Part shown: positions 18,787 through 26,099 of the stretch, one piece after another
Layout: every line of letters starts with the position of its first letter
Numbering within the stretch: position 1 is the first letter of the stretch
DNA from: Escherichia coli
GTDB taxonomy: Bacteria > Pseudomonadota > Gammaproteobacteria > Enterobacterales > Enterobacteriaceae
Assembly (NCBI RefSeq): GCF_044324875.1
Contig: NZ_CP172185.1
DNA: 64,000 nucleotides
Direction: 5' to 3' (one strand)
Notes under the pieces: model-generated
Database searches by the model: none
Told to the model about the DNA's origin: nothing
Seen by the model: the letters and a program-made list of their open reading frames with translations, nothing else
Program-made: the position numbers and the translations under genes

Positions 18787-18988
18787 TGCAAAATGGCATC
18801 TGAATCGATCGCAGTTTGGCATTCGAATCGATCATGATTTGGCATCCATCTCCGATCACAGTTTGGCATCACAATCGATCACGATTTGGCATGCTTCCGA
18901 TCATTGATTGGCATCCTGCCAGTCACTCCGGGAATTAACTCTTTTCACCACAGTCTCCATTGCCGTGTTTAAACCAGTGGAGACGTCA

Positions 18989-20554
18989 ATGTCCAGAAAG
19001 AGAAAATCCAGGAGCACTATGGAAACCTGTTTTAAGATCCTTCAGCTCAAGTTCGACAAGAAGCTGACTAACCGTTGTATCGGACTGACGTTACACATCA
19101 GCGCCTCAACCGTTTTTGAGGTTCTTGCCCGCTTCAAAGCCTCTTCTCTGTCATGGCCATTACCTGCTGATATATCCCATGACACGCTGGAGAAACTCAT
19201 TTTTCCGCCCAAAGACACCTTTGCATCAGAGCTTGTAATGCCTGACATGTTGTACTTCGATACGGAAATGAGAAAACCAGGTGTGACGCGGCAACTGTTG
19301 TGGATGGAATACAAGGCACAGGCGGGTAACAAAGCGATGGGATACTCGCACTTCTGCCGTTGCTACCGGGAGTGGAAAAAAACGCGACGTCTCTCCATGC
19401 GCCAGGAGCATCGTGCCGGCGAAAAGCTTTTTATCGACTTCTGTGGTCCTACGGTTCCTGTTATTAATCCGGACACCGGTGAGATACGCCGCGTGGCAAT
19501 CTTCGTGGCCGTAATGGGGGCGTCCAACTATACCTACGTTGAAGCGTGCGAAGGTCAGGACATGATGTCATGGTTAAATGCCCACAGCCGTTGCCTGACC
19601 TTCCTGGGCGGCGTACCGAAGCTGCTCATCCCCGATAACCTCAGAAGCGCAGTGAAAAAGGCCGATCGATATGAGCCTGTCATCAACGACAGTTATCAGG
19701 CACTGGCTGAGCACTATGGCACGGTTATCATCCCGGCCCGACCACGCAAACCTAAAGATAAACCAAAAGCAGAAAACGGCGTCCTCATCGTTGAACGATG
19801 GCTTCTTGCCCGCATCCGTAATGAAACCTTCCACACGCTCAGGGCGCTGAATGCGCGCCTTAGGGAGTTACTGACAGACATGAATAACCGGCCAATGAAG
19901 GGGTACGGCAATCAAACCCGTGCAGAACGCTTCCGCATACTGGATGCGCCAGCACTCTCTCCGCTGCCTCTGGCACCTTATGAATACACGGAATACAAAG
20001 CTGTGAAGGTTGGCCCTGACTACCACGTTGAATATGCCCGTCACTGGTACTCCGTTCCACACGAACTGGTCGGTCAGCGTCTGTCACTGAAGGCGGGGCA
20101 GTCGGTGGTACAGCTCTGGCACAAGGGGCAGTGTGTGGCGCAACATCCGCGCAGCACACATGAATATAAACACACAACCAATCCGCTTCACATGCCAGAG
20201 CGCCACCGGCAGCACGGGACATGGACACCGGAACGCCTGATCGAGCAGGGAAAACGTACGGGCCCGTCCACAGGCCGGGTGGTTGAATCCATGCTGAAGG
20301 CAAAACCCCATCCGGAACTGGCTTATCGTGCAGTTCTGGGGCTGCTGGCACTTCAGAAAAAATACGGCCCGGAACGGCTGGAAAAGGCCTGTTACGTTGC
20401 CCTGCACTATAACGCCCCTGACAGACGCTTTATCGACAATCTGCTGCGTCACCATCGGGAGAACCTGGAGCTTCCATTATCCCGCCAGGGCGAACAACAT
20501 CCGGCATATGCTTCAGAGCATGAAAACCTGCGTGGTCCGGGCTACTACCACTGA
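18989..20554 (+). CDS. istA: IS21-family transposase IstA
   Basis: Start set at ATG 18989 after GGAG (track begins at a TTG at 18908); N-terminal HTH-like segment, ~520 aa; immediately followed by istB. Confidence 0.8.
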   Translation: MSRKRKSRSTMETCFKILQLKFDKKLTNRCIGLTLHISASTVFEVLARFKASSLSWPLPADISHDTLEKLIFPPKDTFASELVMPDMLYFDTEMRKPGVTRQLLWMEYKAQAGNKAMGYSHFCRCYREWKKTRRLSMRQEHRAGEKLFIDFCGPTVPVINPDTGEIRRVAIFVAVMGASNYTYVEACEGQDMMSWLNAHSRCLTFLGGVPKLLIPDNLRSAVKKADRYEPVINDSYQALAEHYGTVIIPARPRKPKDKPKAENGVLIVERWLLARIRNETFHTLRALNARLRELLTDMNNRPMKGYGNQTRAERFRILDAPALSPLPLAPYEYTEYKAVKVGPDYHVEYARHWYSVPHELVGQRLSLKAGQSVVQLWHKGQCVAQHPRSTHEYKHTTNPLHMPERHRQHGTWTPERLIEQGKRTGPSTGRVVESMLKAKPHPELAYRAVLGLLALQKKYGPERLEKACYVALHYNAPDRRFIDNLLRHHRENLELPLSRQGEQHPAYASEHENLRGPGYYH

Positions 20555-20570
20555 CAGAAGGAACAACAGT

Positions 20571-21326
20571 ATGAGTGATAACCTGTTAAACAAACTGACC
20601 CAACTGAAACTCCCGGCGATGGCCGGGAGCCTGATACGGCAGCGGGAAACGCCTCAGACCTACGACGAACTGTCGTTCGAGGAAAGGCTGACGCTGCTGG
20701 TTGATGACGAGCTTCTGAGCAGGGAAAACAGCCGTGTGGCACGGTTGAGAAAAAATGCCGGCCTGAAATACCAGGCAACACCGGAAGGGCTGCGCTATCC
20801 GGCCTCAAGAGGTCTGCGGGCTGAACAGATGAGAGAACTGCTGAACGGCCACTACATAACCCACAGGAAAAACCTGCTGATAACCGGTCCGACAGGATGT
20901 GGCAAGAGCTGGATAGCCAATGCGCTGGGCGAACAGGCATGTCGACAGAAACACAGCGTCCGGTACTGTAGAACCGGGCGATTACTGGAACAACTGGCTC
21001 AGGGACGTGTTGATGGCAGCTGGCTGAAATATCTGAAACAGTTGCAAAAAATACAGGTTCTAATCCTGGACGATCTGGGGCTGGAACAGTTAAGTAACGC
21101 CCAGTGTAATGACCTTCTGGAGCTCATAGAGGATCGTTACGGACAAAGCAGCACGATAGTGGTAAGCCAGTTCCCGGTAGATAAATGGCATGGTCTGATG
21201 GAGAACCCAACAACAGCAGATGCCATCCTGGACAGACTGGTACATAACTCACACCGAGTGGTCCTTCAGGGAGAGTCACTGAGGAAAAATCCCCCGGTAG
21301 TGGAAAGCAGCGAAAAAACGCGTTAA
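20571..21326 (+). CDS. istB: IS21-family ATP-binding helper protein IstB
   Basis: Start set at ATG 20571 after AAGGAA; Walker A GPTGCGKS and Walker B ILDDLG motifs, 251 aa. Confidence 0.85.
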   Translation: MSDNLLNKLTQLKLPAMAGSLIRQRETPQTYDELSFEERLTLLVDDELLSRENSRVARLRKNAGLKYQATPEGLRYPASRGLRAEQMRELLNGHYITHRKNLLITGPTGCGKSWIANALGEQACRQKHSVRYCRTGRLLEQLAQGRVDGSWLKYLKQLQKIQVLILDDLGLEQLSNAQCNDLLELIEDRYGQSSTIVVSQFPVDKWHGLMENPTTADAILDRLVHNSHRVVLQGESLRKNPPVVESSEKTR

Positions 21327-21425
21327 AAAGCGGTAGAAAAAGTTAAGTTCCCGGTTGATCGAATGGATGCGAATCGCTGATCGGACTTCGATGCCAATCC
21401 GTGATCGAATAGAGCGGAATACGCA

Positions 21426-23701: not shown

Positions 23702-23953
23702 ATGTTCCGTTGTCCCCTGTGCGGTGCATCCGCACGTATCCGCACCAGTCGCAATGAAAATGATTCAGGCACAGTTCGCCTGAAGTACTACCAGTGCAAT
23801 AACCTCGAATGCGGGATCGGCTTTACCACACTGGAGGGTTTTAACAAATTCACATCAAAACGCGCCCCGTCGCCGCAGGGTACAGAGCGGATACCGTGGG
23901 AAGATTTTCCGGGATCTCACAGGGGGAATGCTCAGATGAATCTTGATATTTAA
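23702..23953 (+). CDS. ogr: Ogr/Delta-type zinc-finger late transcription activator
   Basis: MFRCPLCGASARIRTSR...YYQCNNLECG: CxxC...CxxxxC arrangement and N-terminal similarity to recalled P2 Ogr. Confidence 0.8.
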   Translation: MFRCPLCGASARIRTSRNENDSGTVRLKYYQCNNLECGIGFTTLEGFNKFTSKRAPSPQGTERIPWEDFPGSHRGNAQMNLDI

Positions 23954-24002
23954 GAACAATAATCAGGTTGAGAGGACATCATAAGGCAAGTAGATTAACG
24001 GC

Positions 24003-24097
24003 AGATACTTTCCCGCAACCACGGGCAAGTATTTAATTATCCATGATGAAATATGACCTAAATTGTTTTTTGCCCGCCGGAAAGCGGGCATTTTTTT
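24003..24097 (+). ncRNA. Candidate small RNA cassette 1 (promoter TTGAGA-17-TAGATT at 23968-23996; hairpin + U7 terminator 24072-24097)
   Basis: Exact 17-bp spacer; stem GCCCGC/GCGGGC then TTTTTTT; no convincing RBS or ORF; also serves as terminator after ogr. Confidence 0.35.
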
Positions 24098-24311
24098 ATT
24101 CTTTTGTGGTTATGGGGTCATCAGGAACCACGTGCAGATTATATTTTTGTTTTTTTGGCGTTCCTCCGGCAGCAACGAGTTCATCAATAAGACACTGACA
24201 CGCCTGAACATCCCGGGCATGTCTTAGTTTCACCTTTATTGATTTAACCTTATCCTCACCGGAGGAGAAATGCAGTTCAATCTCAATATCGTTTCTTCGG
24301 AACAATCTCAT
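24096..24311 (-). CDS. Hypothetical 71-aa protein (no family recognised)
   Basis: ATG preceded by AGGGGG; MRLFRRNDIEIELHFSSGEDKVKSIKVKLRHARDVQACQCLIDELVAAGGTPKKQKYNLHVVPDDPITTKE; AT-rich upstream region with TATAAT-like elements. Confidence 0.4.
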   Translation of the reverse strand: MRLFRRNDIEIELHFSSGEDKVKSIKVKLRHARDVQACQCLIDELVAAGGTPKKQKYNLHVVPDDPITTKE

Positions 24312-24483
24312 ACGCCCCCCTGAATATATCAGAAATGCTAGTATCGAAAAATGAGAAAACAGTTAGACAGGAGAAACATATTAACACAAATCATTTATAC
24401 CTATAGATGAAATTATAATTTCATTCATGAATATGATAGATAACTATATTGTGAACAAAATGAAAAATGGCTAAATTAAAAAT

Positions 24484-24564
24484 GGGCATGGAGGAATGCC
24501 TCGTAATCAGTAATACATGATCCATACTTCCTTGTTTTGCCCGCCGGAAAGCGGGCATTTTTTT
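24484..24564 (+). ncRNA. Candidate small RNA cassette 1b (promoter TTGTGA-17-TAAATT at 24449-24477; terminator 24539-24564)
   Basis: Same terminator sequence as cassette 1; body shares ATACATGATCCATAC-like segment with the other cassettes. Confidence 0.3.
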
Positions 24565-24668
24565 GGCGGTTACCATCGCCTCACCTTCCTGGTTCACACA
24601 AAGCAACCCTGATTTTCCATGAAAACTTCAGGGTTGAGCCAAAAGCACAAAGACAGTAGATTAACCAA

Positions 24669-24767
24669 GGGTACCCGCCACCTGCCAACAGGAACGGTAT
24701 CCAGTACGTATTAATGACTGACAATTCACATTGCTGTTTTGCCCGCCAGAAGGTGGGCATTTTTTTG
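24669..24767 (+). ncRNA. Candidate small RNA cassette 2 (promoter TTGAGC-17-TAGATT at 24634-24662; terminator 24741-24767)
   Basis: Terminator stem GCCCGCC/GGTGGGC carries substitutions relative to cassettes 1 and 1b that keep pairing; 5' body ACCAAGGGTACCCGCCACCTGCCAACAGGAA. Confidence 0.4.
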
Positions 24768-24871
24768 GCAGTTATCATGGACGCACCTTCATGACACATA
24801 TTAAGCAGACCTGATTTTTCCATGAAAAATTCATGGTTGAGACAAAAGCACAAAAACAGTAGATTAACCAC

Positions 24872-24969
24872 GGGTGCCTGCCACCTGACAACAGGAAGGG
24901 GTGTCCATTATCCATGATATACAAACGAAAAGTCTTGTCTTTTGCCCGCCGTTGCGCGGGCTTTTTTTT
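24872..24969 (+). ncRNA. Candidate small RNA cassette 3 (promoter TTGAGA-17-TAGATT at 24837-24865; terminator 24944-24969)
   Basis: Terminator stem GCCCGC/GCGGGC with different loop (CGTTGC); 5' body ACCACGGGTGCCTGCCACCTGACAACAGGAA ~85% identical to cassette 2. Confidence 0.4.
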
Positions 24970-25366
24970 ATCCAAGAACCCTGTCTGCAGCAACACGCGC
25001 CAGAAATCCAGAGCGGCTACCGTATTCAGGATGAGACTCAACGAACTGATCAATGCGACGAATAAGCAGAGATGGCAGGGTAACATTGATTTTTTCCGAT
25101 TTCCCCATCAGGCGGGACACATCCACCTCAACGAGCGCCCACACTGCATCACTGTATTCAGGATCTGATTGCCATTCATCAAGATTTGTAGCGACAGGGA
25201 TAGACTCACCAGATTCAACCAGTAATTCTACGTGTGCCTCAATGGCTTCACGGGCACTGTCTACCGCATCCTGAAAACTATCACCGCCAGAAAAACAGCC
25301 GGGCAGATCTGGGACGCGAACACCAAAAGATGAATCCCCCCGGTCAATAGCGATTGCATATAACAT
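24968..25366 (-). CDS. hicB: HicB-family antitoxin (N-terminal HicB fold plus C-terminal ribbon-helix-helix)
   Basis: 132-aa ORF MLYAIAIDRGDSSFGVRVPDLPGCFSGGDSFQDAVDSAREAIEAHVELLVESGESIP...KINVTLPSLLIRRIDQFV; GGAGG 5 nt before ATG; 22 nt downstream of hicA. Confidence 0.7.
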   Translation of the reverse strand: MLYAIAIDRGDSSFGVRVPDLPGCFSGGDSFQDAVDSAREAIEAHVELLVESGESIPVATNLDEWQSDPEYSDAVWALVEVDVSRLMGKSEKINVTLPSLLIRRIDQFVESHPEYGSRSGFLARVAADRVLG

Positions 25367-25388
25367 TGAGACCTCCAGAAGGTGGGGC

Positions 25389-25568
25389 TTACAGCCCCGC
25401 CTGTTTCTTAATACTTTTTAAAGTTGGTAAAGGTATATCTTTTTGAGGGTGTTTTACCGTTACCAGCCCCTTCTTTGTCGGATGTTTGAATTGATGATGA
25501 CTCCCCTTAACCCTAACAAGATACCATCCATCCGCCTCTATCATTGCTATTGCACTTTTGCTATCCAT
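25389..25568 (-). CDS. hicA: HicA-family mRNA-interferase toxin (59 aa; absent from ORF track because <60 aa)
   Basis: Manual translation MDSKSAIAMIEADGWYLVRVKGSHHQFKHPTKKGLVTVKHPQKDIPLPTLKSIKKQAGL; matches the recalled HicA pattern GW...GSHH.F.HP...G.VTVPHP.KDL..GTL.SI.KQAGL. Confidence 0.65.
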   Translation of the reverse strand: MDSKSAIAMIEADGWYLVRVKGSHHQFKHPTKKGLVTVKHPQKDIPLPTLKSIKKQAGL

Positions 25569-25617: not shown

Positions 25618-25767
25618 TAGTCAAAGCAAGGGTTCGGAGTTATTAGAGTTATAGAATAATTGACTGCCTCCCCAAAACTGCGGCAAGAAAAAACCACTGA
25701 CCACGGTCAATTTGTGGATCATGAATTAATTTTTATTTATAAATCAATGCATTATACAAAGAAAAAA

Positions 25768-25787
25768 GGCCGCAGAGCGGCCTTTTT
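25768..25787 (-). terminator. Intrinsic terminator downstream of ihfA (bidirectional hairpin)
   Basis: ggccgcagagcggcc stem-loop flanked by A-run upstream and T-run downstream. Confidence 0.6.
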
Positions 25788-25799
25788 AGTTAGATCAGA

Positions 25800-26099
25800 T
25801 TACTCGTCTTTGGGCGAAGCGTTTTCGACCCGGCTTTTTAACTTCTGCCCGGGTCTGAAGGTCACCACGCGCCGTGCTGTAATGGGAATATCCTCGCCCG
25901 TTTTCGGGTTACGTCCCGGGCGTTGATTCTTATCACGCAGATCGAAGTTACCAAAACCAGAGAGTTTCACCTGTTCGCCGTTTTCCAGAGCGCGACGGAT
26001 CTCTTCGAAAAACAGTTCAACCAGTTCTTTGGCATCCCGCTTGCTAAGCCCAAGCTTATCAAACAGATATTCTGACATTTCAGCTTTTGTAAGCGCCAT
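25800..26099 (-). CDS. ihfA: Integration host factor alpha subunit
   Basis: 99-aa translation [92 protein letters not shown]... recognised as E. coli IHF-alpha. Confidence 0.95.

Follow-up and report, generated by a model that had tools for sequence, protein, structure and literature searches.

An open reading frame of 71 codons (ORF71) on the minus strand of an Escherichia coli prophage raises the question of whether it is a gene in its own right, a working partner of the RNA-like elements and toxin-antitoxin genes around it, or a remnant of something else. We examined it within a 64,000-nucleotide stretch of contig NZ_CP172185.1, referred to here as the window. The ORF list and the translation (MRLFRRNDIEIELHFSSGEDKVKSIKVKLRHARDVQACQCLIDELVAAGGTPKKQKYNLHVVPDDPITTKE) confirmed the minus-strand frame of the original prediction and place it at 24096-24311, and the RefSeq name of ORF71 in sister genomes with identical loci is WP_001236182.1, a "hypothetical protein". 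ORF71 is convergent with ogr, the gap to the ogr stop codon being 142 bp, and repeat mapping agreed with its predicted location between ogr and the cassette array, with cassette 1 and cassette 1b on its two sides (Table 1). It is flanked by two of the four copies of a terminator-bearing repeat (24063-24099, 24530-24566, 24732-24768 and 24935-24971); cassette 1 separates ogr from the 3' end of ORF71, with a T-run that overlaps the ORF71 stop codon. In-frame stops are present just upstream of the ATG, and a G-run (AGGGGGG) ends 3-4 nt 5' of it.

Table 1. Features around ORF71, with coordinates in the window
Feature	Coordinates	Strand	Description and basis
ogr (late transcription activator)	23702..23953	plus	Pfam Ogr_Delta, E 4.9e-14
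Cassette 1	23966..24097	plus	Promoter-like TTGAGA-17-TAGATT (23968-23996), terminator 24071-24097
ORF71	24096..24311	minus	71 aa, ATG start, TAA stop; ORF list and translation
ORF71 C-terminal tail	24096..24143	minus	15 codons (NLHVVPDDPITTKE and the preceding Y) plus stop; alignments A2, A3
phrog_14142-homologous segment	24144..24323	minus	Codons 1-56 and ~12 nt upstream; PHROG hit, tblastn, nucleotide comparison, alignment A3
AT-rich pocket	24312..24484		27.2% GC vs 52.0% for the window
Cassette 1b	24485..24566	plus	Small-RNA-like; 5' hairpin GGCATGGAGGAATGCC, then terminator 24538-24564
Cassettes 2 and 3	24567..24971	plus	~203-bp units, each with promoter-like element and terminator
hicB and hicA (toxin-antitoxin)	24968..25568	minus	Pfam HicB_lk_antitox, E 9e-46; HicA_toxin, E 8e-22
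attR core	25758..25782		25-bp direct repeat, AAAGAAAAAAGGCCGCAGAGCGGCC, = ihfA terminator

ORF71 had been described as an orphan that resembles no family, and this description did not hold. In a PHROGs profile search, residues 1-56 of ORF71 matched positions 72-127 of the 128 positions of phrog_14142 (E 4.9e-12, 46.9 bits), a family labelled "unknown function" that comprises proteins of about 128 aa from P2-like prophages of Enterobacterales, and tblastn aligned ORF71 with full-length proteins of 128-133 aa at E ~1e-11. The full-length relatives P0009 (128 aa, the Salmonella/Citrobacter example of the family, with P0045 as its Klebsiella/Raoultella example) and P0011 (133 aa) align to ORF71 from their Met72. 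An exhaustive phmmer search of 1.8 billion representative proteins returned near-identical E. coli sequences, the 57-aa P0010 and again P0009 and P0011, together with two long proteins (602 and 807 aa) that gave short matches only. A profile search with alignment A2 collected 71 clusters (43 full-length, 7 partial and 21 short ones of <=71 aa), among which the ORF71 clusters scored E 2.8e-25 and 1.8e-24. The 43 full-length clusters, which span 117-207 aa and are mostly 128 aa long, come from Salmonella, Citrobacter, Enterobacter, Klebsiella/Raoultella, Yersinia, Pectobacterium, Yokenella and Kosakonia and align with a mean column identity of 58%, so that homologues with a conserved coding signature do exist for the family. 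ORF71 is 42-47% identical to its nearest full-length members. Every one of the nine residues that are invariant in the C-terminal half is present in it (M, L, D, E, E, L, R, C, L; invariance computed with ORF71 included), and four of the eight near-invariant columns (conserved in at least 90%) are altered in it (G73R, L75F, T88S and A117V). Such collinear homology to a conserved family indicates coding ancestry rather than a chance ORF, while being no proof of a working gene today.

Searches of Pfam, NCBIfam, PADLOC and PDB sequences gave no match for ORF71, and PADLOC-DB v2 contained no family at E up to 1 for ORF71, P0009, P0011 or P0010. Family hits were confined to sub-threshold ones to ACT (E 0.025) and EACC1 (E 0.17) in 1-2 of 51 members, which we did not use as a basis for assigning a function. 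Structure prediction was of little help, as the AlphaFold2 models of the family had low confidence (pLDDT 49-53) and the fold searches gave noise. The secondary-structure pattern of the family reads strand-helix-strand-helix-strand-strand-helix, of which ORF71 keeps the last strand-strand-helix only. No match to the ORF71 locus or protein was present in 50,697 phage records, and no mention of WP_001236182 was found in the literature.

The front half of the family protein is missing from the locus. With full-length members as queries, tblastn matched positions 1-71, the N-terminal half, in no frame of the window, and the AT pocket likewise had no phrog_14142-family homology, whichever frame was read. 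Nor was the N-terminal half present in 20 kb across the int/attL end of NZ_OY754371.1, a sister genome whose locus is identical. Two explanations for the gap were rejected: a frameshifted N-terminal half upstream in the window, given that tblastn with full-length members recovered the C-terminal match only, and a gene split by phage integration, given that the 20 kb with btuC, int and the portal gene in the sister genome are devoid of family homology. At the nucleotide level the family homology stops about 4 codons before Met72. The ~12 nt upstream of ORF71, tcaggggggcgt, correspond to the family codons Ala-Gly-Val-Ile (gcaggggttatt), and around Met72 the window has tcaggggggcgtATG in place of the gcaggggttattATG or gcagaggttattATG of intact genes. 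By this match, the apparent Shine-Dalgarno sequence is the remains of the codons Ala-Gly/Glu-Val-Ile; the G-run called a good SD in the original prediction does stand before the ATG. At the other end, the 15-codon tail has no family counterpart and runs into the T-run of the cassette-1 terminator. ORF71 is thus joined to foreign sequence at both ends.

The position of ORF71 is also that of the family. Like the intact gene, it sits at the att-proximal prophage end and is convergent with ogr; orientation and position relative to ogr and att are thus alike, and ORF71 differs from full-length phrog_14142 in being without positions 1-71 and in having a 15-residue unrelated tail. In clade A, the intact gene is convergent with ogr at the end of P2-like prophages in L005, L006, L018-L020 and L031-L035 (the last group being IMG/VR contigs), and the 5'-truncated locus L036 has the same arrangement, with ogr beyond hok. 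The next neighbour of the family gene is hok in L015-L017, L029 and L030 and a yegQ-type peptidase gene in Klebsiella L018-L020, and where an adjoining host gene is visible (L005/L006, L013-L020), it points the same way as the family gene. Clade B (P0052-like) is ~33% identical to clade A, and its gene is found directly downstream of int, at the opposite prophage end, in 23 viral contigs (L037-L059) and in L021, where it adjoins btuC. One viral contig, IMGVR_UViG_2778261161_000003, carries both a full-length clade-B gene after int (L051) and a clade-A relic by hok and ogr (L036). The placements of the two clades imply a circular order of repressor, int, family gene and opposed ogr, with attP on either side of the family gene; a conserved family therefore flanks the attachment site of P2-like phages on one side or the other. 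On this gene order, the family seems to belong to the lysogeny (repressor-integrase) transcription direction, and it may be expressed in lysogens. The integrase of the phage lineage in the window and those linked to clade B share ~81% identity.

Truncation at the 5' end recurs among family members. The same Met is the first residue of the 21 short clusters, which come from E. coli, Salmonella, Yersinia, Klebsiella, Pantoea and symbionts, and the 57-aa short forms at L013/L014, L007-L010 and L036 are 5'-truncated relics with residual upstream homology. In L013 and L014, which represent another E. coli P2-like prophage at ihfA, this homology reaches back to position 21, lacks a start codon and is shortened by an internal deletion, and in the P4-like satellite loci L007-L010 it extends to about position 58. 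Among the 57-aa forms, P0063 lies next to ihfA in other E. coli prophages and P0010 after the primase gene of P4-like satellites, so that the family or its debris is common to P2-like helpers and P4-like satellites. The short forms start at Met72 only because it is the first ATG left, and their differing breakpoints point to independent decay events. They are like ORF71 in being called from Met72, in being 5'-truncated and in their location at mobile-element ends or in variable regions; unlike ORF71, they keep start-less upstream homology (to position 21-58) and a normal C-terminus. The 5' end of the family gene is att-proximal, the side most exposed to recombination.

The limits of the prophage were mapped by its attachment site. 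The attR core marks the right prophage limit, 1.45 kb beyond ORF71, and the second copy of the 25-bp repeat lies at the btuC-side junction in the sister genome NZ_OY754371.1. The empty site reconstructed from the two flanks and one core is contiguous in 5120 of 5426 complete E. coli genomes. In E. coli SE11, a P2-like prophage, PP_SE11-4, has been described between btuC and ihfA with a 25-nt duplication (PMC2608844), the same integration site and duplication length as those of the ORF71 prophage; that account of PP_SE11-4 mentions neither ORF71 nor the cassettes. The att mapping places ORF71, the cassettes and hicAB within the ogr-attP interval as prophage cargo. The suggestion that ORF71 could be cargo is thereby borne out, as it lies within a P2-like prophage bounded by the 25-bp repeat and moves with the phage to ihfA, copA and serS, the segment from ogr to ~24500 being 99.7-100% identical at these three chromosomal sites. 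The cargo next to att differs by site: at ihfA it is hicAB, at copA a 73-aa ORF, and at serS a long array together with hok. The ogr-attP interval of the present phage lineage is thus a variable cargo region of small-RNA-like cassettes, toxin-antitoxin pairs and gene debris, and no account of the ogr-att interval was found in the literature on P2-like hotspots. An Rfam STnc540 hit at 25703-25858 includes the attR core. Beside the core, each phage arm has a direct repeat, GGTCAATTTGTGGATC (25705-25720) and, on the attL side, GGTCACTTTGTGGATC (L022 6638-6653), and these repeats look like arm-type sites of an integrase.

Tandem small-RNA-like cassettes of ~200 bp each fill the ogr-attP interval (23966-24971 in the window; 1069-3900 in L012). 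Within a cassette, a promoter-like TTGAGA-17-TAGATT on the plus strand is accompanied by a 5' hairpin that varies, a conserved stretch of the AUCCAUGAU type and a strong terminator. No Rfam family covers the cassettes or the ORF region, sub-threshold hits to Hrs1 and Trp_leader falling on the terminators only. The cassettes always occur with the present phage lineage, and the array length and the interspersed cargo vary by site. Terminator, ORF fragment, AT pocket and cassette 1b together form a repeat unit, in which cassette 1b has been duplicated jointly with the ORF fragment. The ogr-proximal copy of ORF71 is intact and identical (WP_001236182.1) at the three chromosomal sites, with ~100% identity over 560 bp, and because the whole 560 bp is this uniform, the intact copies may reflect recent spread and not selection.

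Two further, diverged copies of the unit are present in the serS array of strain LH10-b-1 (L012). Copy B (L012 3018-3500) shares 84% identity, and its ORF is disrupted by deletions of 8 nt and 2 nt and by a stop; in copy C (L012 2524-2848) the ORF is truncated after ~28 codons. The ORF part of copy B is 83.5% identical compared with 86.6% for the non-coding flank, and its substitutions at codon positions 1/2/3 number 13/7/14, neither of which gives a sign of coding constraint; no purifying selection on the reading frame was detected among the paralogous unit copies in L012. In these co-duplicated copies the reading frame has been lost and the RNA-like parts persist. In strain Ch1 (L060) the A7 tract of ORF71 (24154-24160) is one A longer (A8), so that the tail falls into another frame, and the RefSeq annotation has no CDS at this place. 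The databases also contain protein variants that are frameshifted or truncated (P0003-P0006, with P0003 and P0005 frameshifted); the frameshift variants may be real variation or long-read homopolymer error, and some could be sequencing errors.

We consider it probable that ORF71 is a non-functional relic of a phrog_14142 gene, truncated at the 5' end and altered at the 3' end, which is carried inside a repeated small-RNA-like cassette unit. The fragment probably lacks a function of its own and seems to have originated by recombination among the repeated cassettes. The ancestor would have been an att-proximal phrog_14142 gene encoding ~128 aa in the repressor/integrase direction, convergent with ogr, of which the 3' 168 bp remain. 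Recombination in the variable ogr-attP region would have taken away the 5' half of this gene, AT-rich DNA of the cassette 1b promoter region would have been put in its place, and the 3' end would have been joined to new sequence reaching into the cassette-1 terminator. The G-rich Ala-Gly-Val codons now resemble a ribosome-binding site, and the repeat unit in which the fragment is copied also includes the AT pocket and cassette 1b. The frame is still open because the conserved internal Met72 supplies an ATG.

The strongest rival, which we regard as unlikely, is that ORF71 is a functional stand-alone mini-protein, in which case a promoter in the pocket would drive the C-terminal strand-strand-helix domain; its role could be that of a small regulator or of an interaction or oligomerisation module that might, for example, interfere with the full-length protein when a related phage comes in. 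The intact ATG with its SD-like G-run, the retention of all invariant residues of the C-terminal half, the -10-like elements upstream and the intact ogr-proximal copy in annotated sister genomes are consistent with such a protein, but four near-invariant residues are changed and the paralogous unit copies are frameshifted or truncated with no coding constraint. The recurrence of 5'-truncated forms from the same Met across lineages (the 21 short clusters) could likewise mean that the C-terminal domain has a value of its own, whereas the short forms examined show start-less N-terminal homology and differing breakpoints, which argues for independent decay and not for a designed short gene.

The expression signals bear on the same choice. 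The original prediction pointed to an AT-rich upstream region with TATAAT-like elements, and the low GC content and the motif are both there: a permissive scan found a perfect TATAAT on the minus strand at 24412-24417, inside the 14-bp palindrome GAAATTATAATTTC (24409-24422), and an extended -10-like TGTTAATAT at 24378-24386, the perfect hexamer and the extended element lying 66-100 nt upstream of ORF71. A strict sigma-70 scan, however, found no minus-strand promoter in the pocket, which weakens the promoter part of the claim; sigma-70 hits across the region numbered 3, compared with 2.8 expected from shuffling, and the -10-like hexamers of the pocket carry little weight because they are expected by chance in 27% GC DNA. 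The hairpin 3' of the ORF71 stop has no T-run on the minus strand, as read from the sequence, which also speaks against a functional mini-protein. A plus-strand promoter-like TTGTGA-17-TAAATT was read by eye at ~24449-24477, before cassette 1b, and the best-conserved blocks among the three unit copies fall in the AT pocket; these conserved blocks fit a plus-strand promoter for cassette 1b rather than anything serving ORF71.

A more specific proposal, that ORF71 and the 57-aa Met72 forms are retained because their C-terminal domain interferes with or mimics the full-length att-proximal protein of related phages, strikes us as doubtful. Were it true, the mini-protein could be a small factor in superinfection interference or in the control of lysogeny, perhaps with a coupling to the neighbouring small-RNA-like cassettes. 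The P2 accessory ("moron") genes old, tin and fun(Z), which are expressed from the prophage, are intact and have demonstrated exclusion phenotypes. ORF71 resembles them as non-essential P2-like cargo in a variable region with GC below that of the structural genes; they lie elsewhere on the P2 map, whereas ORF71 is a fragment in the ogr-attP interval.

We consider it very improbable that ORF71 works together with the flanking cassettes, hicAB or both in a regulatory, toxin-antitoxin or defence module, as had been suggested for the adjacent RNAs; the convergent cassette-1 RNA could, for example, pair in antisense with the ORF71 mRNA and so control it. Transcripts from the two sides would overlap, since ORF71 ends right at the cassette-1 terminator, and the joint duplication of the ORF fragment with cassette 1b as one unit, the occurrence of ORF71, the AT pocket and the cassettes each in 30 of 5426 complete E. 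coli genomes, and the toxin-antitoxin cargo (hicAB, hok) of the same region would also fit a module. The co-duplicated copies that lost the frame while retaining their RNA-like parts argue against it, as do the empty PADLOC, Pfam and NCBIfam searches. In the comparison across loci, neither the cassettes nor hicAB accompany the family in any other lineage examined, and the absence of the cassettes from these other family-bearing loci means that the family has no conserved partnership with the RNAs or with hicAB. Within the present lineage the ORF71 unit is found without hicAB at copA and serS, beside the 73-aa ORF and hok, respectively, so a link to hicAB found no support in co-occurrence. In the window, hicAB is inside the prophage between the cassette array and attR, directly adjoining the latter and 650 bp from ORF71 across three cassettes, and Pfam gave no hit of ORF71 to HicA or HicB. 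A candidate pairing of AUCCAUGAU with the hicA start region was dropped, with 6 nt complementary only.

That ORF71 is a chance open frame in AT-rich intergenic DNA without coding ancestry is already refuted by the collinear protein-level homology to the family (E 5e-12 to 1e-11) in a syntenic position, even though chance ORFs of comparable length are numerous in the window and the pocket at 27% GC looks non-coding.

Reading ORF71 as a relic removes a false "orphan gene" lead, in that the RefSeq protein WP_001236182.1 belongs, as a fragment, to a catalogued phage family. More interest attaches to the intact family and to the cassette array than to ORF71 itself, and the intact family is a sensible target for functional work. 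The prophage backbone is related to isolated P2-like phages by at most 76% identity over 12% of a 12-kb query. In the window the prophage is defective because its tail sheath gene is interrupted by an IS21-family element of 2,639 bp (18787-21425), whose insertion duplicated 7 bp of target; the element comprises an IstA-like transposase (18908-20554) and IstB within the ORF at 20328-21326, and the sister genome has an intact tail sheath gene of 427 aa. At the attL end of that sister genome (L022 6640-7780), two co-oriented genes unrelated to phrog_14142 lie between int and btuC; one encodes 257 aa and has no family match, and the other encodes 125 aa and matches HEPN weakly (Pfam E 0.04). Together they hold the slot that the clade-B phrog_14142 gene has in related phages and are a candidate accessory or defence pair. 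A 2026 survey of P2-like viruses lists the BtuC permease as a phage "auxiliary metabolic gene" (PMC13100340); since P2-like prophages integrate right beside btuC, we speculate that this listing may be a prophage-boundary artefact.
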